Below are positions 10,006 through 23,107 of a stretch of 64,000 nucleotides of DNA, in pieces (position 1 is the first letter of the stretch; the number at the start of each line of letters is the position of its first letter). This DNA is from Escherichia phage ekra. The DNA lies in the sequence record MN850644.1; one strand, 5' to 3'. The translations under genes were made by a program, and so were the position numbers. The notes under the pieces were generated by a model. That model ran no database searches. It saw nothing but the letters and a program-made list of their open reading frames with translations, and had not been told where the DNA came from.

Positions 10006-11997
10006 TCACTCAGTTTCGAACGGGCAGTCATCTGCATCCTCACTTAATACAGGTGGAATCGTTGAACTTTGACGCTGTTCTTCAGTATAGACTTCACCAG
10101 TCTCACGGTCAAACACTTCATCCTCATAATGAGGTAAAGAGTCATCATAATGGTCTTCAGCTTCACCAATACCAAACTGCTGGCGAATATTTTCTGCTGC
10201 ACCATCAATATCAACACCACATCCAGAAGCTTTGATAAGACGTCCTGTATCTGGATTGTACCAAGTATGACCAGCAATACCTGTTGACTTACCATGACGA
10301 CGACACTTAGTTAACTTGATTTTTGTCAAGTTTTTCTTAACAGGGTCTGGGTCAACCTTGTTACGCATTAACAGGATGTTATTCATAGAAATCTGGAAAT
10401 ACGCACCAGAACCTTTGATATCCTCTTCAGAGATGTCTCCACCTTCAGAGTTGGCTTTCTGACCACCTGCACTCTTACGAACGTGACATACGTTTACCTG
10501 TGCATACTGGTAGCGTTTGCAACGACGCAATAGCTCAGACAAGACTTCCTCTTCATCCGTATCAGAACGTGACAGAGCCAACGTAATAGGGTCAAGAATA
10601 ATAATCTTACAGTCTAAACTGTTAACAAGGTAGTCAACAAACTCTAGCAGGTTATCTTGGTCAATTGCCCCTTGATGGTCAACGATATGGATACGACGAC
10701 CTTTAGACAGTTCTGCGTGTGCTCCTTTTAATTCATCCCAATCCCGTTCATCATAAGGAATCTCAGAAATCTGTTTGCTCAGGTGGATTGCACAGAGCAT
10801 CTCCATCAACTCTTCATAGGTATCTTCTACAGGAATTACACCGATATTATAGTCAGTTTCTTTCCAAGCGGAATAAATCATCTCACGAGTGTAAGCTGAC
10901 TTACCTACTGAGGATGGTGCTGCCAGAGTTGTAATCTCACCTAAACCATAACCACCATAAGTCAGTCTGTTCAAATCTCCGAAAGATTCTGGGAAAGGAA
11001 TCAATGGAATCTGACCACGATTCTTCATTGCCTCAAAACCATCTGCGAAGTTCTTGATACCAGCAGGACAGTAACGAGGTGCATTGTAGATACGCTGCTT
11101 AAATCCTTCCAGAACTGTATCTTTCTCTTTATAGAACTTTGTCCACCACTCGTTAAGGTCTTTTACACCTTCTGGATACTGGAATAAACGAACCTTCTCA
11201 ATAGGGAGAATACCAGCAGCCTCTTTGGTAGCTTTAGCACCTGCTTCATCGTTATCAAAGCACAAGTAAATCTCATTAAATGATGTAATGTACTGATAGT
11301 TGTCTTTGATAGACTTGATGTTTGCACCTGATGGAACAGATACGTGACAGTAATTCTTACGACGAGACTTGTCCTTAATCGCAAGAGAAGTCATATAGAT
11401 TGCTGTTGCACATTCCATCTCACCTTCCCAGATGAATAGACGGTTACCACCTTCTGGAGCAATCCATGAACCAAACATTGCCAGTTCACCTTTAATGTCT
11501 CCAACACCACCTGAAAAGTCTTTTAGTTTACCTCGTAGGTGTTCTTTTGGATGGTCTTCTGGGTAACGGTGACGAACACGGTAGCCAACATGTTCTAGCT
11601 TACCATCTTCATTACGTTTGTAAGTTGGATAGAAGTGCGCATCAATTTCACCGTCACTGTCAATGTCAATCTTAATACCCAAACGCTCAAGAACTTTTGC
11701 AGGAATCTTCCTGTCTTTCAAGTCCATTGCTTCTAGGTTTTCTTTTACATCGTCTAAATCCATTCCACGGAAAGTACGGTTTTTATTGTCTGAACCAGTA
11801 GAATAAGTGCTCACGATTTGTCCTTTATCAAAATCCCACTCTGGGAAACCTTTGTTACAACTAAAGCAAGTCATCGAATAAGAATCATCGTCATGATGAT
11901 AGATTGAACCAGCATCTGATGAACCACAACGTGGACATGCACAATGACCAATAAACTGACCAGCCTCTTTCAATTTACGACCTTTAGACATTAGCAC
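10006..11997 (-). CDS. bifunctional DNA primase-helicase (T7 gp4-like)
   Basis: 663-aa ORF; N-terminal Cys4 zinc ribbon (CACPRCGSSD...CFSC), central TOPRIM-like region, C-terminal DnaB-like helicase with Walker A GLGEITTLAAPSSVGKS and Walker B IIILD. Confidence 0.85.
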   Translation of the reverse strand: MLMSKGRKLKEAGQFIGHCACPRCGSSDAGSIYHHDDDSYSMTCFSCNKGFPEWDFDKGQIVSTYSTGSDNKNRTFRGMDLDDVKENLEAMDLKDRKIPAKVLERLGIKIDIDSDGEIDAHFYPTYKRNEDGKLEHVGYRVRHRYPEDHPKEHLRGKLKDFSGGVGDIKGELAMFGSWIAPEGGNRLFIWEGEMECATAIYMTSLAIKDKSRRKNYCHVSVPSGANIKSIKDNYQYITSFNEIYLCFDNDEAGAKATKEAAGILPIEKVRLFQYPEGVKDLNEWWTKFYKEKDTVLEGFKQRIYNAPRYCPAGIKNFADGFEAMKNRGQIPLIPFPESFGDLNRLTYGGYGLGEITTLAAPSSVGKSAYTREMIYSAWKETDYNIGVIPVEDTYEELMEMLCAIHLSKQISEIPYDERDWDELKGAHAELSKGRRIHIVDHQGAIDQDNLLEFVDYLVNSLDCKIIILDPITLALSRSDTDEEEVLSELLRRCKRYQYAQVNVCHVRKSAGGQKANSEGGDISEEDIKGSGAYFQISMNNILLMRNKVDPDPVKKNLTKIKLTKCRRHGKSTGIAGHTWYNPDTGRLIKASGCGVDIDGAAENIRQQFGIGEAEDHYDDSLPHYEDEVFDRETGEVYTEEQRQSSTIPPVLSEDADDCPFETE

Positions 11998-13799: not shown

Positions 13800-14222
13800 T
13801 TATTTCTCTCTCAGTTGGTTAAGTTTCTTTCTAGAACATTTTAAGTTTTCGGATGAAGAAAAGTCAAGTGTCTTTTCAGAACGTGGATAATAGTGCCTAT
13901 CCCAAGAAGTTTCAACATCGTTAATCAGTGACGCTAGATTACACAGGTCTGTACCACTTTGCAACCTCTTTTTAAGAGAATCTAGTAAAGCAACTGTGTC
14001 TTTAGCTTTACGTCTCGCTGTAGCAACATCTTTCATATGCTCAAACACAGAGCATTTTAAGTCATCTTCATAGTTTTCAGATAACTCTATTTCGTGTTGT
14101 ATATCAACCATTCTCCTGTGATGGTGAGCATATTCCCGTTGAGCAGCAATGTCAAGTTCTTCCAACTTCTGCAAAGCTCTAACAAAGTCAGCTATGTCTG
14201 GGTGAACAAACATTTTCTGCAT
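13800..14222 (-). CDS. hypothetical protein
   Basis: 140-aa ORF, first gene of minus-strand block next to divergent intergenic region. Confidence 0.4.
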   Translation of the reverse strand: MQKMFVHPDIADFVRALQKLEELDIAAQREYAHHHRRMVDIQHEIELSENYEDDLKCSVFEHMKDVATARRKAKDTVALLDSLKKRLQSGTDLCNLASLINDVETSWDRHYYPRSEKTLDFSSSENLKCSRKKLNQLREK

Positions 14223-14395
14223 GTAAGCCTCTTTTAAGTAACTATTTAGTTTTAATCTTTTATCTTAACGTATTCTATACGTTATACTTTAAAGCTTTTT
14301 AAAAGCTATTAAATAATCTTTTAAGAGTTTTAAAGTATCTGTATAGTTAAACTGTTAAGTAACCTTTTAAGTAAAAACCCACTTCGCAAAGATTA

Positions 14396-14440
14396 ACACC
14401 TTGTCAAGTGCATTGTCAACTTGCTTTTTATAATTTTTTG
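14396..14440. promoter_or_regulatory. conserved intergenic motif CACCTTGTCAAGTnCnTTGTCAAC...TTTTTnTAA (tandem TTGTCAA boxes) in divergent promoter region
   Basis: Near-identical ~40-nt motif recurs at 56716..56760, also in a divergent intergenic region; contains -35-like TTGTCA and a TATAAT hexamer. Confidence 0.45.
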
Positions 14441-14479
14441 CAGTAATGTATGAGGTTAATGATTTTAGAGGGAGTAAAA

Positions 14480-17179
14480 ATGGAAAACGTAGATTTTAAA
14501 AACTTACATTTAGTTGGTGATACAGAAACTGATGGTTTACTCCTTGAGTTCACTAAAGTGCACGTAATGGCTTTCGCAGACTATAAATCTGACGATGAAG
14601 AGCCACCTGTATGGGTCTTTACAGATGAGCCTATCCTCGGTCACAAGTACACTAAGTACATCAAGGGCGGCTTACGTGAAGGTGTTGAATTTGCGTTAAA
14701 GGCAAAACGTCTTTGCATCCATAATGGTCTCGGCTATGACTGGTGGGTTTTCAATCACATTGCGCCTGATTTATGGAACTTTGATAATCCAAAATGTAAG
14801 CCGTGGAGTAATTTCTTTCAGGATTCTCTTATCCAGTCTCGTGTTCAGTGGATGGATAGGCCAACCCCAAAGGGTTATAAAGGTGCTCATGGTTTGGCTG
14901 CATGGGGTGCTCGTGTTGGTGTCCGTAAACCAGAGATTGAACATTGGGGTGTGTGGAATGCAGAAATCTTCACTCGTGTTGTAGAAGATATCCGTATTAA
15001 CGCCAAAACTAAACGGGCACTTGATAATGAGTATCTCAAGCTTAAGAAGTGTGGCATAGATACTTATGAAACCTATATGCGAGCTAAAGAAACATCTTTC
15101 TGGATGAGTCAACAAGCTATCAATGGTTGGAAAGCTGATAAGGAGCTTATGGAGTTCCATGTAAAGGAACTTGACAAGTTGACTAATGAGCTTGCTTCAG
15201 AGGTTGAACCACATCTTCCTCCAACTATTAAGACCAAAGGTAAAGTGACTGGAGAAGAGTTTGCAAAAGCTTGGAATGAGTATGTTGAAACATTTGGTCA
15301 TGCAGATGGACTGAAGAGGATTACCAAGTACCCTAAGACAAAGTATCGTCAGCAGGTACGTAATGGTGAGATGCAGACATATGAAATCAAGCCATTTGGT
15401 AAGCCAACTACAAAGATTTTTAACATTGAAAAGAGAAATTGCTATACACCAACCAACTCTGTAACTGGTGAAGAGTACAAGGAGGGTTTTGTAGCAATGA
15501 AGGATGCTCGTGAAATTTGCAATGAGTTGAATGCAAAGATTGGTAAGAAATGCAAAGACTGGAAGCCAGTAAAAACAGTCAAAACTGTGAAGTACTATAA
15601 CAGTCACGTTGTTAACCACTTTGAACTTGAGTCAAGTCGCTACACAGGTTTGATTGATGCACCGTATACACCAATTGAGTTTGAAGTTTCTCGTATGACT
15701 CAGGTAGCAGTTGTTAAAGACTACTTGAAATCAGTTGGTTGGATTCCAGATGACTGGAACTACAAGAAAGACTCAGATGGTCGCCCTGTCAAAGTTTGTC
15801 GTTTCAAAGACAATAAAAAGATGATTACAAAACATCCTAAGTGGCAGGAAATGGTTGAGCGGTGTGGTTTGAGCTATGTTGAGCACGAAGGTGTACAGTA
15901 TATTGAGCATAACTGGTCTGTGAAGAAGTACACAGATTTGCTTGAGCCTTGCTTAATCCGTACTTCACCAAAACTTACTGAATCATCTTATGATACGATT
16001 GAAGGTGAGCTTGGACAGAAGATTGCGAAATACTACACTTTGATGCACAGACGCAGAACTATTGAGAACTCAAAGGATGATGAAAAAGGTTGGTTGAACC
16101 AGATTCGTCCTGATGGTCGCCTTAGTGCTGGTGCAATGGTGTTTGGTACTTCAACTGGACGTATGACACAATATGGTATTGTAAACGTACCGTCTGGTGC
16201 TGCTGTCTATGGGGAACCAATGAGGGCAGTGTGGATTTGTGAGGAAGGGACTAACGTTGTCTCTGTAGACATGAACTCAGCCCAGCTAGTTCTTCTTTGT
16301 AACTTTATGGGTGACAAAGACTTCACCAAAGCGGTAACGCAAGGTAAAGAAGAGATTGAGTTCATTCGTCAAGAAGATGGACGCTATTACTGCAAACATT
16401 TTGATGAGTATCTCAACCCAGAAATTGATAAGTACCTTCGCTATGACTCTGAGAATGACCTGTACGTTGTCTATTCAGGGACTGATGCACATACACTGAA
16501 CAGTATTTACTTTAGCTTGAATGATGAGCAGGATATCTTGACTTGTCGAGCTACTCAGGATGAGAATCTTCTTCATGAGATTAGCAAAGGTCGTAAGAAA
16601 GCTAAGAATGGTATCTATGCACTGCTGTTCGGTGCAGGTGATGAGAAGTTTGCTAAGACGATTAAAGCTGCAACTACTCAGGAAGGAGCACTGACTAAAC
16701 AGACTTACTTTATTCGTTTGCCTAAAATTAAGAAGCTGCTAGATGACTTGGAAGCTGACTACAAAGCAACTAAAAAGGCACTTGAAGAGGTGTTTGGTAA
16801 GACTGCTGCAATCTCTAAAGGGGGTTTTGTAAAGGTTGCTGGAGCTTGGTTGTGGTGTAAATCTCCACATAAGTTATTGAATTATTTGCTCATGGGTTCA
16901 GAGGCTCAGATTCAAAATGAGGCGATTAACCTTGCTTGTAGAAGAGCATGTGAAGAAGGGTTGACAAAATTAAATGGACGAAAACCAGCAATTGGTGCTA
17001 GGCTTTTGCTGGCATACCACGATGAAAACAGTTGGGAGTGCCCAGAAAGTATGACTCAAGAAGTTAAAGCCATAACTGACTGGATGTATGGTCAGGCATC
17101 TAAGAATTTAGGTTTGAAGAGTGAGACGCTTGTAACTGGCACAGGTAAGGTTGGTAAGAGCTGGTTGGAAGTGCATTGA
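14480..17179 (+). CDS. DNA polymerase, family A (T7 gp5-like) with 3'-5' exonuclease domain
   Basis: ORF 14450..17179; Exo I motif VGDTETDGL near N-terminus, long palm/fingers region; start moved to ATG 14480 (MENVDFKN) with GAGGGAG RBS. Confidence 0.85.
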   Translation: MENVDFKNLHLVGDTETDGLLLEFTKVHVMAFADYKSDDEEPPVWVFTDEPILGHKYTKYIKGGLREGVEFALKAKRLCIHNGLGYDWWVFNHIAPDLWNFDNPKCKPWSNFFQDSLIQSRVQWMDRPTPKGYKGAHGLAAWGARVGVRKPEIEHWGVWNAEIFTRVVEDIRINAKTKRALDNEYLKLKKCGIDTYETYMRAKETSFWMSQQAINGWKADKELMEFHVKELDKLTNELASEVEPHLPPTIKTKGKVTGEEFAKAWNEYVETFGHADGLKRITKYPKTKYRQQVRNGEMQTYEIKPFGKPTTKIFNIEKRNCYTPTNSVTGEEYKEGFVAMKDAREICNELNAKIGKKCKDWKPVKTVKTVKYYNSHVVNHFELESSRYTGLIDAPYTPIEFEVSRMTQVAVVKDYLKSVGWIPDDWNYKKDSDGRPVKVCRFKDNKKMITKHPKWQEMVERCGLSYVEHEGVQYIEHNWSVKKYTDLLEPCLIRTSPKLTESSYDTIEGELGQKIAKYYTLMHRRRTIENSKDDEKGWLNQIRPDGRLSAGAMVFGTSTGRMTQYGIVNVPSGAAVYGEPMRAVWICEEGTNVVSVDMNSAQLVLLCNFMGDKDFTKAVTQGKEEIEFIRQEDGRYYCKHFDEYLNPEIDKYLRYDSENDLYVVYSGTDAHTLNSIYFSLNDEQDILTCRATQDENLLHEISKGRKKAKNGIYALLFGAGDEKFAKTIKAATTQEGALTKQTYFIRLPKIKKLLDDLEADYKATKKALEEVFGKTAAISKGGFVKVAGAWLWCKSPHKLLNYLLMGSEAQIQNEAINLACRRACEEGLTKLNGRKPAIGARLLLAYHDENSWECPESMTQEVKAITDWMYGQASKNLGLKSETLVTGTGKVGKSWLEVH

Positions 17180-20257: not shown

Positions 20258-20324
20258 AAAGTTGTTGACATAGAAAATTTGGTGAGTATACTGAGCAGCA
20301 TAAACCAACGGGTACTCACCAACA

Positions 20325-20650
20325 TCACTTAAGAGTCTTTGAAAAGGGTTTTTTAAGTGATGTGGGGCGAGGCTCGGTGAGGTGGGGTAAGGCATAGTGC
20401 GGTGCTGTTTGGTATGGGTAGTTAGTCTCAGCTACATTAAAATGAGACTTACCTTTTTAAAAGGTCTTTAAACAGGGTCTTTTAATAAGGTTGTGTGATG
20501 TGATGTATGGTGCTGTGGAGTTTGGTTAGGTCCGGTCAGGTATGGTATGGTGATGTGAGGTATGGGTGGATGGTAGTAGCCACGTTAAAAATCTACCAAG
20601 TTTCTAAAGAGTCTTCTGTTGAGGGTTCTTTACAAACAACTTAACAATCA
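20325..20650 (+). repeat. composite repeat cluster A: two full units plus one degenerate box (GGTCTTT double box + (GGTNN)n pentanucleotide tract + hairpin)
   Basis: Box AAGAGTCTTTGAAAAGGGTTTTTTAA at 20329, GT-rich tract with 5-nt phase 20355..20420, hairpin AGTCTCA-12nt-TGAGACT 20424..20449; second unit 20453..20598 (box TTTTTAAAAGGTCTTTAAACAGGGTCTTTTAA, tract, hairpin TGGTAG...CTACCA). Confidence 0.8.
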
Positions 20651-21263: not shown

Positions 21264-21704
21264 ATGAATACGAAAGCATTAGCAGCAAAGTTTAGTTACG
21301 GTGACACTGTATCACATTCTGAGATGGACACCTTCTTAGGTATTGTGAAGCCAACTTATCAAGGTGACATTGTTAAGTACGAAGATGAAATGAAGGCTTA
21401 TGCGCTTACACGTCTAAACCGACTTGAGAAGTTTATTGAGAAGCTTCTTAAAGAAGAGAAGATTTATCTGGTTGCTTCAATGGGTGTTGGTTATCGTGTG
21501 GTTGAACCTAAGCATCAAGCAACTATTGCAAAACGAAAAATGTCTGGTAAAATTGGTCGTGCTTTAAAGCAAGCCACTCAAGCGATTGAGAATGTGAACA
21601 CTATGGCACTTAGCCATCAAGAACGCTCACGACTAATTGAACAGCAAAACCATTTAGCTGCTATGAAAGCTAACATTAACAAGCAACGTAGAAAACCTTT
21701 CTAA
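21264..21704 (+). CDS. hypothetical protein flanked by repeat clusters
   Basis: 146-aa ORF, basic C-terminus (NKQRRKPF). Confidence 0.45.
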   Translation: MNTKALAAKFSYGDTVSHSEMDTFLGIVKPTYQGDIVKYEDEMKAYALTRLNRLEKFIEKLLKEEKIYLVASMGVGYRVVEPKHQATIAKRKMSGKIGRALKQATQAIENVNTMALSHQERSRLIEQQNHLAAMKANINKQRRKPF

Positions 21705-21715
21705 GTTAACTAGGT

Positions 21716-21738
21716 AGCCTCTTCGGAGGCTCCTTTTT
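21716..21738 (+). terminator. rho-independent terminator (AGCCTC-TTCG-GAGGCT + T-run)
   Basis: Perfect 6-bp stem, tetraloop, followed by CCTTTTTAAAA. Confidence 0.55.
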
Positions 21739-22135
21739 AAAAGGTCTTTAAGAGGGTCTTTTAACAAGGTGCTGCGAGGTGGGGTCGGGTCAGGTACGGT
21801 CTTGTAAGGTCAGGTTAGGTAAAGTGAGGTATGGGTAGTTAATCGGAGCTACATAAAAATTCGATTACATCACTTAAGAGTCTTTTAAAAGGGTTTTTAA
21901 GTGAAGTATGGTATGGCATGGCGCGGTGAGGTCGGGTGCGGTCAGGTCAGGTGAGGTTCGGTATGGGTAGTTAGTCTCAGCTACATTAAAATGAGACTTA
22001 CCTTTTTAAAAGGTCTTTAAGAGGGTCTTTTAATAAGGTATTGTATGGTGTAGTTTGGTTAGGTATGGTTGGGTGTGGTAAGGTAGGGTATGGAAGGATG
22101 GCAGTAGCCTTATAAAAAATCTGCCAAATAAGCTA
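21730..22135 (+). repeat. composite repeat cluster B: three units of the same GGTCTTT box + (GGTNN)n tract + hairpin
   Basis: Units at about 21732..21870, 21871..22002, 22003..22127; hairpins AATCGGA...TTCGATT (21841..21866), AGTCTCA...TGAGACT (21973..21998), TGGCAG...CTGCCA (22099..22126) show compensatory changes relative to cluster A. Confidence 0.8.
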
Positions 22136-22217
22136 TAAAATCTGTTGACAAGTCAGGTGTTATAGCTTATTTTTATACTCAATGTAATACAAAATTTAAT
22201 ATAACTTTGAGGTCATT

Positions 22218-22601
22218 ATGAAAAAGGTTTTATTAGCTGCTGCAATGGTTATGGCAATGAATTTACCAGTTAATGCAACAGAACTTCCAAATGTGGACTT
22301 ATCAGGTGTTCCAGAAGACACTTGCCAGATTGTTAAAGGTGTTGCTCTAGCTAATGGTGAGCTACTTAAACCAATCTCTGAAGAGTCTTTGACAGAGATG
22401 ACTGATAAAGTAACTGACTATCAGTATCGTGTTCTTGCAGAGTATTTCCTGCAATCTGCAAACATTAAAGAGAAGCACCATGAAGATATTGATGTACAGG
22501 CTATGCTAAATCATCGTATCCAGTTTAAAGAAGATTTGATGCAAAAAGCTATGTATGGTGTTGAATATTTCTTAGAAAACAGAAGCTGCACAGGTATTTG
22601 A
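22218..22601 (+). CDS. secreted/periplasmic protein (signal peptide)
   Basis: 127-aa ORF with N-terminal MKKVLLAAAMVMAMNLPVNA signal-peptide-like segment; AT-rich leader with TTGACA box upstream. Confidence 0.5.
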   Translation: MKKVLLAAAMVMAMNLPVNATELPNVDLSGVPEDTCQIVKGVALANGELLKPISEESLTEMTDKVTDYQYRVLAEYFLQSANIKEKHHEDIDVQAMLNHRIQFKEDLMQKAMYGVEYFLENRSCTGI

Positions 22602-22602
22602 T

Positions 22603-22815
22603 ATGGCTCTTAAAAAGTTACATCCCAGAAGCGGTTATGGTAAGATAATTGACGATACAGACGGCTTTACAGTCTTTACAGTCATCTGTCAAGATGATTC
22701 ACAGATTGAAAAGGCTCTTGACGATTATCTTAATGATGAACGTGAAAAGGTTAGGGCTACAAACATAGATTCATTAATTGACACTTCACGTAAACGGAAG
22801 AAGAAAGATGAATGA
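22603..22815 (+). CDS. hypothetical small protein
   Basis: 70-aa ORF, ATGA overlap with next gene. Confidence 0.35.
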   Translation: MALKKLHPRSGYGKIIDDTDGFTVFTVICQDDSQIEKALDDYLNDEREKVRATNIDSLIDTSRKRKKKDE

Positions 22816-23107
22816 AGTTTTTGACCCTTATGCTCCACAAGATGATTGGGAGGCTGACAGAGAGGCTGAAATGGAGAGTTATGTTTGTCCAATGGATGTA
22901 GACGAAATGAGAGACTTCGTTGCACATCGTTTTAAGAGAGAGATTAAATCCAGAGGTCTTTCTCAAGAGCAAGTTGCTAAAATTTGTGGTATCTCTCAGG
23001 CTCGTGTATCCAACATAATCCACCTCACTGGGAATGTTTCCCTTGAGTATATGTTGGAAGTATGTGAAAAATTTGGTGTTAATTTTAATTTAAGGTTGGC
23101 AGATTAA
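22811..23107 (+). CDS. helix-turn-helix DNA-binding protein (XRE-like)
   Basis: ORF 22778..23107; C-terminal LSQEQVAKICGISQARVSNII resembles an HTH recognition motif; start at ATG 22811. Confidence 0.45.
   Translation, partial: NEVFDPYAPQDDWEADREAEMESYVCPMDVDEMRDFVAHRFKREIKSRGLSQEQVAKICGISQARVSNIIHLTGNVSLEYMLEVCEKFGVNFNLRLAD

Follow-up and report, generated by a model that had tools for sequence, protein, structure and literature searches.

Two near-identical direct repeats in Escherichia phage ekra are likely to be the cores of strong host sigma70 promoters that fire leftward, each carrying a second, complete TTGACA hexamer inside its spacer. The stretch analysed here, called the window throughout, is the 64,000 nucleotides (nt) of sequence record MN850644.1, and the repeats lie within its positions 14396-14440 (site 1) and 56716-56760 (site 2). 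An original prediction, made from the DNA letters alone, had taken them for tandem TTGTCAA boxes that form either an operator for a dimeric regulator overlapping an early promoter or a phage-specific class of promoter. As TTGTCAA is the complement of TTGACAA, each site presents two perfect sigma70 -35 hexamers toward the minus-strand genes. The first proposal was right in that promoter DNA occupies both divergent control regions, whereas the strand was misread and the dimeric operator is weakened and probably wrong. The second gives way to a host sigma70 layout, namely an A-tract, TTGACA, a spacer of 17 or 18 nt and TAnnnT. That the sites are promoters we regard as very likely, judging by their composition and conservation. 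The promoters are ordinary in kind; the new feature is the selected second -35 hexamer within the spacer.

Results

The window comes from a Felixounavirus that shares 98-99% identity with phage heid, Felix O1 and about 250 other records, and its plus strand corresponds to the minus strand of Felix O1. Site 1 is the divergent region between Felix O1 genes 96 and 97, with the DNA polymerase gp96 starting at window position 14480, and site 2 is the divergent region between genes 40 and 41; the open reading frame (ORF) map and the Felix O1 annotation agree with the earlier statement that both sites lie where a minus-strand block meets a plus-strand block. Their claimed near-identity is confirmed, with 23 of 25 positions the same between 14396-14420 and 56716-56740, and the similarity runs further than had been noticed, as a second block common to both sites, ACTTAAAAGGTT on the minus strand, is found about 25 nt downstream. 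The boxes start at 14401 and 14413 in site 1 and at 56721 and 56733 in site 2, so that the repeats are 12 nt apart, with a 5-nt gap between the 7-mers, and not 11 nt as first described.

The 22-nt tandem motif CCTTGTCAAGTNCNTTGTCAAC matches exactly at 14399-14420 and 56719-56740 on the plus strand, has no further occurrence in the window at up to three mismatches, and was absent from all 100 dinucleotide-preserving shuffles of the window (0/100). A window-wide scan thus upheld the tandem motif as a two-site element, whereas the bare TTGTCAA 7-mer is not enriched (27 occurrences against 21.3 expected); what makes the sites significant is their tandem arrangement together with its setting, not the 7-mer. 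Exact TTGACA-N6-TTGACA occurs in the window at sites 1 and 2 only, and in the complete Felix O1 genome the pattern TTGACA-N5-7-TTGACA was found three times, compared with 0.14 expected per simulated genome. The tandem finding is real and highly non-random.

Read on the minus strand, both sites follow one plan, A-tract, TTGACA, N6, TTGACA, N5-6, TAnnnT, aimed into the minus-strand gene blocks: site 1 is ...AAAAAGCAAG TTGACA ATGCAC TTGACA AGGTGT TAATCT... and site 2 is ...AAAAAAGTTG TTGACA AAGGAC TTGACA AGGTG TAGGCT.... At site 1 the proposed working -35 is the distal TTGACA (14414-14419, minus strand), 18 nt upstream of a conserved TGnTAnTCT that forms a putative extended -10, TGtTAATCT (14390-14398, with TGn at 14398-14396 and TAATCT at 14395-14390). 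The proximal TTGACA (14402-14407), the second consensus hexamer in the spacer, is kept in all relatives. Directly upstream of the distal box, the A-tract AAAAAG-CAAG (14425-14429) resembles a proximal UP (upstream) element; it overlaps the -35 of the rightward promoter, so that its conservation is ambiguous. From the position of the -10, transcription is predicted to start at about 14383-14384 and to produce an AT-rich leader of about 160 nt (14223-14384) running to the ATG of a 140-amino-acid gene (13800-14222, minus strand).

At site 2 the proposed working -35 (56734-56739, minus strand) stands 17 nt from the -10 hexamer TAGGCT (56711-56716), in which T1, A2 and T6 are fixed among relatives. 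The second hexamer (56722-56727) is invariant and the six bases between the boxes vary. The A-tract (AAAAAAGTTG) lies at 56744-56749, upstream of the distal box, and the start predicted from the -10, at about 56704, would give a leader of about 115 nt (56590-56705). The first gene after this leader encodes a DUF5681 protein (56218-56589, minus strand), followed by a 471-amino-acid gene, the tRNA cluster and structural genes.

Each sequence element expected of such a promoter is thereby found at both sites: perfect TTGACA at 14419-14414 and 56739-56734, pointing toward the minus-strand blocks; TAnnnT 16-18 nt downstream with T1, A2 and T6 conserved, albeit matching TATAAT at just 3-4 of six positions; and A/T tracts like those of UP elements abutting the distal box (AAAAAG-CAAG and AAAAAAG-TTG at sites 1 and 2, AAAAAAG-TG at a third copy described below). 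The offset of TAnnnT from the distal box is 18 nt with TGn at site 1 and 17 nt at site 2, and the proximal hexamer falls at about -23 to -18, inside the spacer.

Orthologous regions were gathered from IMG/VR through their flanking proteins, which for site 1 yielded 10 distinct sequences from 29 loci, among them lineages whose polymerase is only 89-93% identical. Throughout Felixounavirus and about five more diverged lineages neither hexamer changes, and in the -10 just T1, A2 and T6 are fixed. In the site 1 alignment the A-tract AAAAAGCAAGTTGACAA and CTTGACA do not change, the inter-box bases read ATGCAC, ATACAC, AATCAC, AATAAC or AAGCAC, and the -10 region reads TGTTAATCT, TGTTAGTCT or TGGTAGTCT, i.e., TG(T/G)TA(A/G)TCT, with the TGn kept and the variation confined to non-critical positions. 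Likewise, both hexamers of site 2 are invariant in every locus that spans the region, between inter-box sequences as different as AAGGAC, AAGTAC, AATGAC, TTCCTC and AGCCTC, and the -10 is TAGGCT, TAGCCT or TAAGTT, T1, A2 and T6 being fixed and the middle variable. As read from this alignment, the pattern is the signature of a -35/-10 promoter. The proximal hexamer is always exact and often cTTGACA, its flanks are variable and its position floats by about 1 nt, and in the Felix O1-like phages it goes with the weakest -10 boxes of the promoter family. By these comparisons selection has preserved the second TTGACA as an exact -35 hexamer.

The Felix O1 genome paper proposed four transcription units diverging from these two regions and expected divergent promoters there, and yet it reported a single promoter-like sequence, P41 (TTGACA-N15-TATAGG), and nothing in the 96/97 region (Whichard 2010, PMC3185647). 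P41 is the same DNA as site 2, its -35 being the distal TTGACA at Felix O1 position 21515. As published it is paired with TATAGG at N15, the second hexamer goes unremarked and the site 1 region is left without a promoter. The conserved N17 TAnnnT indicates that N17, rather than N15, is the selected register; in relatives the TATAGG of the published register is lost, reading TGTAGG, TGTAGC or TGTAAG.

A third Felix O1 tandem (11269-11305 of that genome), about 2.7 kb past the right end of the window, reads AAAAAAGTG TTGACA ATACCCC TTGACA TTGG TAACTT, with a 13-nt period. In 17 loci it varies solely in the bases between the boxes and in the central positions of the -10, which is TAACTT or TAATGT at 17 nt. 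It lies between the co-directional ORF21 and ORF22, with neither a divergent partner nor a gene on the opposite strand, from which it follows that the motif goes with the TTGACA strand independently of a divergent setting. Each of the three Felix O1 tandem sites aims at its downstream genes.

About eight further intergenic sites in the window combine an A-tract, TTGACA, 17-18 nt and TAnnnT, together making up one host-type promoter family, and the AAAAAG-N3-4 context also precedes other TTGACA promoters of the window. Here belongs the single related box TTGACAAGTC, which is present on the plus strand at 22145-22154 as had been predicted. Its TTGACA (22145-22150), followed after 17 nt by TATTTT (22168-22173), would drive the gene at 22218-22601 with no second hexamer. 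A box with an ordinary single -35 suits the promoter reading of the sites and not the operator reading, and by its layout the element belongs among the ordinary sigma70-type promoters of the phage. A further candidate tandem at 54685-54702 (TTGACA..TTGATA) was set aside, its second box being the other arm of a hairpin, the terminator t42 of Whichard, and not a kept hexamer.

Separate rightward promoters could also be placed. At site 1 the putative promoter of the DNA polymerase gene comprises TTGCTT (14421-14426), 17 nt and TAATGT (14444-14449), ahead of the ATG at 14480; relatives keep TTGCTT unchanged, differ in the spacer and have TAATGT, TAAGGT, TAGGGT or TAGTGT as the -10. The promoter scan placed the one at site 2 at TTGACT (56765-56770), 17 nt and TACCAT (56788-56793), upstream of the ATG at 56839, and it is invariant in the six lineages compared (6/6). 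T4 middle promoters carry a MotA box, (a/t)(a/t)(a/t)TGCTT(t/c)A, centred at -30 and 11-13 nt from the -10. A middle promoter of this type was rejected for site 1, where the TGCTT at 14422-14426 sits 17 nt from TAATGT, like a normal -35. A T4-late-like TATAAATA beside site 2 was rejected as well: relatives read AATAAAAC or AATAAATA, and no late sigma factor is annotated in Felix O1.

The doubled hexamer recurs in other phages. In an Erwinia-phage-like locus (L027) the ortholog of site 1 has a single CTTGACA-17-TACATT, and in phiEa21-4 (L285, 16494-16530, after gp31), a member of the subfamily to which Felix O1 belongs, we find AAAAAGCCC TTGACA TTCTAC TTGACA GGGGC TAAAGT, with a 12-nt period. 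Scanning IMG/VR for AAAAG-N3-TTGACA-N6-7-TTGACA returned at least 120 loci, and about 78 among the matches listed form a low-GC family which by gene content (gp46, gp47, gp55, UvsW, UvsY and the capsid protein) consists of uncultured marine T4-like phages, with Melnitz, HTVC008M and cyanomyophages as nearest cultured relatives. Their element (loci L083-L202 and L205-L284; for instance L127, 8706-8742) occupies the interval that separates the start of gp55, which codes for the late sigma factor, from the gene before it; it is antisense to both genes and would yield an antisense or non-coding transcript toward uvsW and uvsY.

An unbiased marine sample anchored on gp55 provided 57 distinct upstream sequences with 36 distinct core variants. 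Both TTGACA hexamers are exact in 49 of the 57, the distal one is TTGACT in two more, and the proximal one is TTGCCA in two. The distance from the distal box to the -10 is 17 in 32 of the 36 cores, and a TATTAT alternative gives 17 in three of the remaining four; the -10 takes the forms TATAGT, TAAAGT, TATTAT, TATATT, TACATT, TAGAAT or TAGTAT. The inter-box and post-box lengths are 6+5 or 5+6, and hence the proximal box moves by one base with the distal-to-(-10) distance staying at 17. In HTVC008M the corresponding antisense position is occupied by a consensus promoter with one box, CTTGACA-17-TATAAT, and Melnitz differs. Among 34 further distinct viral contigs with the pattern, TAnnnT stands at distal+17 in 10, against about 0.8 at other offsets, and no clear TAnnnT peak was seen in them at proximal+17. 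Read from these sequences, the tandem is a recurrent architecture, with the working -35 in the distal box and the proximal box carried inside the spacer. Homology between site 2 and the marine element, which are alike at about 30 of 33 bases, was considered and rejected, since the likeness is more simply accounted for by a common T4-type early-promoter consensus (AAAAAGTTG and the -35 box), present in T4 too, and the sequence outside the core is unrelated.

Both leftward leaders end in normal ribosome-binding sites and genes, and that of site 1 is conserved like coding DNA, with 88% mean column identity; it holds three CTTTTAAG octamers and a hairpin at 14266-14284. Against an expectation of 5.2, the window contains 16 copies of the octamer, of which six fall in the two short leaders (14231-14371 and 56612-56690) and one is part of the minus-strand block ACTTAAAAGGTT common to both sites; in the leaders it could be a protein or RNA-level signal. 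The hairpin sequence is a perfect 8-bp inverted repeat, TAACGTAT-tct-ATACGTTA, present just once in exact form in the window. Lineage L022 has ATGTAT-aac-ATACAT in its place, both arms being changed and the pairing kept, which points to either a palindromic binding site or a small hairpin in the RNA.

Other features of the neighbouring DNA deserve mention. The 471-amino-acid protein that would be transcribed from site 2 (54721-56136, minus strand), encoded just upstream of the tRNA cluster, matches DUF2828 and DUF7788 and is annotated in RefSeq as RNA-binding, and its place beside about 20 tRNA genes may be meaningful. A putative promoter of that cluster, TTGACA-17-TAATAT (54675-54710), has its -35 within the stem of the hairpin GGGTATTGACAatgTGTTTGATACCC, which the genome paper lists as the bidirectional terminator t42 (PMC3185647), and hence terminator and promoter overlap. 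Three copies of a unit of about 40 nt, CCTTTTTAAAAGGTCTTTAAGAGGGTCTTTTAATAAGGT, stand in long gaps that separate plus-strand genes (20322-20542 and 21732-22090), each followed by about 50 nt of degenerate G/T-rich repeats of GGT type.

Discussion

We propose that at these sites the A-tract would act as a proximal UP-like element and the distal TTGACA as the -35, with a 17-nt (site 2) or 18-nt (site 1) spacer leading to a weak -10, TAGGCT at site 2 and TGn with TAATCT at site 1, and with predicted starts near 56704 and 14383, respectively. The second TTGACA might then offer an extra docking site for sigma70 region 4 or for a factor of the same specificity, and such docking could raise the capture of polymerase at poor -10 boxes or hold the polymerase in an alternative complex. 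This docking role is a tentative proposal, for which we would claim rather less than an even chance. The behaviour of the hexamers across lineages fits recognition of one hexamer at a time, in the manner of sigma70 region 4, and fits a fixed dimer over both boxes less well. Somewhat more doubtful still is the broader idea that the second hexamer, at about -24 to -18, is a distinct selected element, kept or reinvented in phage lineages as unrelated as enterobacterial Ounavirinae, the marine T4-like group and scattered contigs, and read by a new mode of region 4 or by a conserved factor with -35-like specificity; if true, it would represent a new way to tune or switch strong early promoters.

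Support from outside the alignments comes from the phage itself and from cell-free work. Felix O1 encodes no RNA polymerase and no known specificity factors (PMC3185647), and phage can be produced from naked FelixO1 and VpaE1 genomes in a cell-free extract of E. coli (PMC10933291), which indicates that host polymerase is enough to start the programme and gives indirect support for the use of sigma70.

Several observations weigh against strong host sigma70 promoters at these sites. The -10 hexamers match the consensus at three of six positions at both sites, site 1 requires an 18-nt spacer, and a simple promoter scan called neither leftward promoter. In the standard holoenzyme-promoter complex the spacer stretch at about -23 to -18 is not known to be read by sigma70 in a sequence-specific manner. 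Published maxima by reverse transcription PCR (RT-PCR) for ORFs 41, 42, 97 and 98 are at 25 min and not at 5 min, and no immediate-early firing was shown; the maximum of ORF22, which follows the third copy, falls at 5 min, and ORFs 96, 101 and 105 are transcribed within 5 min according to the text. As the method is an end-point gel and not quantitative, this timing is weak evidence. Finally, no mapped transcription start site for Felix O1-like phages was found in the searched literature.

Foremost among the alternatives is an operator added to the promoters, in which the boxes bind a direct-repeat regulator of phage or host that covers the -35 and the spacer and shuts the promoters off, for example in a switch from early to later expression. 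The promoter reading would still hold in that case, and we judge the operator unlikely, though not negligible. It would explain why the proximal hexamer is conserved when a normal sigma70 promoter needs none; repressors often bind in spacers, the RT-PCR timing hints that the units are not purely immediate-early, and a helix-turn-helix (HTH) protein, gp85, is encoded at 22778-23107. Yet conservation ends exactly at the edges of the -35 hexamers and the flanks vary, and the distance from box to box is 11, 12 or 13 nt across copies and lineages, poor for a fixed dimer, with distal-to-(-10) staying at 17-18. The same layout appears in phages of very different gene content, namely the marine T4-like group and other contigs. 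Moreover, the HTH protein has a Cro/Xre-type HTH_3 domain, and such proteins usually bind inverted, not direct, repeats. No inverted repeat and no palindrome is common to the two regions. The sequence therefore lacks the fixed spacing, the usually inverted half-sites and the footprint-type conservation of a dimeric HTH operator. The palindrome of site 1, ACGTAT-N3-ATACGT, was rejected as an operator for its lack of an exact second copy in the window and of a match near site 2 (3 occurrences against 1.2 expected at up to two mismatches).

Compatible with leftward promoters too, and less probable than the operator, is that their transcripts make an R-loop primer in the AT-rich leader, as at T4 oriF and oriG, with the doubled -35 serving that use. 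The leaders behind the two promoters, 115-160 nt long, are AT-rich, conserved and full of A/T tracts, and site 1 adjoins the DNA polymerase gene. T4 oriF is located at uvsY, and the marine element is antisense to its neighbours beside uvsW and uvsY, an unusual position for an mRNA promoter. The third Felix O1 copy and that of phiEa21-4, however, lie in ordinary early-gene regions, and the Felix O1-like leaders end in the normal ribosome-binding sites and genes already described. We consider origin priming improbable.

Twin overlapping promoters, each TTGACA serving as its own -35 with starts 12 nt apart, are hardly credible. Both hexamers are perfect and the proximal one fits the extended consensus cTTGACA, whereas the bases 16-18 nt past the proximal box are AAGTGG at site 1, TACTTA at site 2 and GGGGGT at the third copy, none of them TAnnnT and none conserved as such, and the 34 viral contigs show no clear peak at proximal+17. 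Least probable of all is a rightward element, either a plus-strand activator site or a weak TTGTCA -35, for although TTGTCA matches five of the six -35 consensus bases, the scan listed TTGTCA-18-AATAGT at 56733 and the TGTCA repeats resemble a pho box (one version of this idea), the boxes abut the rightward -35 at site 1 and are 26 nt off at site 2, keeping a constant distance to the leftward -10, the TATAAT at 14428 is neither conserved nor correctly spaced from the boxes (10 or 22 nt) for a plus-strand -10, and the third copy, having no opposite-strand gene, argues against any rightward role.

Repeats of the pho box or CII type were also discarded, their period here being 12-13 nt and variable against the 11 nt of the pho box, which would also sit about 10 nt ahead of a -10 on its own strand. 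By eye, the GG/GC-type spacing is wrong for sigma54; CTTGACA resembles the CTTGAAA of sigma32 but has no CCCCAT at 13-17 nt; the GGACTT of a sigmaE site is not conserved; and the TTR of an integration host factor (IHF) site is one position off register. Neither region matched an Rfam family.

If strong host sigma70 promoters with a second hexamer are what these sites contain, there are practical consequences. Felix O1-like phages find wide use in Salmonella and E. coli typing, in biocontrol and in cell-free engineering, and their transcription programme is essentially unmapped. Where the genome paper had no promoter in one divergent region and mis-registered the other, the main leftward and rightward promoters are now placed, as predictions, to the base, which provides exact targets for engineering and for mapping of starts. 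We found no description of a doubled -35 in the searched literature, and the wV8 paper, the VpaE1 paper and the UAB_Phi87 supplement contain nothing on these sites. The second hexamer poses a small and clean puzzle on how polymerase reads spacers and, if functional, would be relevant to many phages, abundant marine ones included.

Comparison with known systems

With the CII site of phage lambda (TTGC-N6-TTGC) and the pho box bound by PhoB (CTGTCAT repeats, 11-nt period), in which fixed-spacing repeats replace or flank a poor -35, the sites share short direct repeats about one helical turn apart over the -35 region and a poor -10. In the doubled hexamer, by contrast, it is the consensus -35 itself that is repeated, at distances of 11-13 nt, and no cognate factor is known.

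Canonical E. coli sigma70 and extended -10 promoters resemble the sites in TTGACA, a spacer of 17±1 nt, TAnnnT, a TGn at -15/-14 (site 1) and an orientation toward genes. The spacer sequence, in contrast, is normally free in canonical promoters, and where spacers are known to have an effect it is through position -18 and DNA shape rather than through another -35 hexamer (Singh 2011, PMC3130263).

The closest likeness is to the early promoters (Pe) of phage T4, described as 'uber' UP/-35/TGn/-10 promoters with further, unexplained consensus regions (Hinton 2010, PMC2988021). Like Pe, the sites have an A-tract ahead of a -35 that is close to consensus, often together with a TGn, and the flank AAAAAGTTG before the -35 is common to site 2, the marine elements and the T4 example caaaaagttgTTTACT-17-TATGAT. 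T4 Pe are used by the unmodified host sigma70 polymerase in a virulent myovirus without a polymerase of its own, and the same would apply to the Felix O1-like sites. On the other hand, the first 50 kb of T4 contain no doubled -35, Felix O1 is not known to have an Alt-like or other function that modifies polymerase, and the window sites combine weak -10 boxes with a complete second TTGACA in the spacer. By sequence likeness, the two sites thus belong to the kind of UP/-35/TGn/-10 early promoter described for T4.

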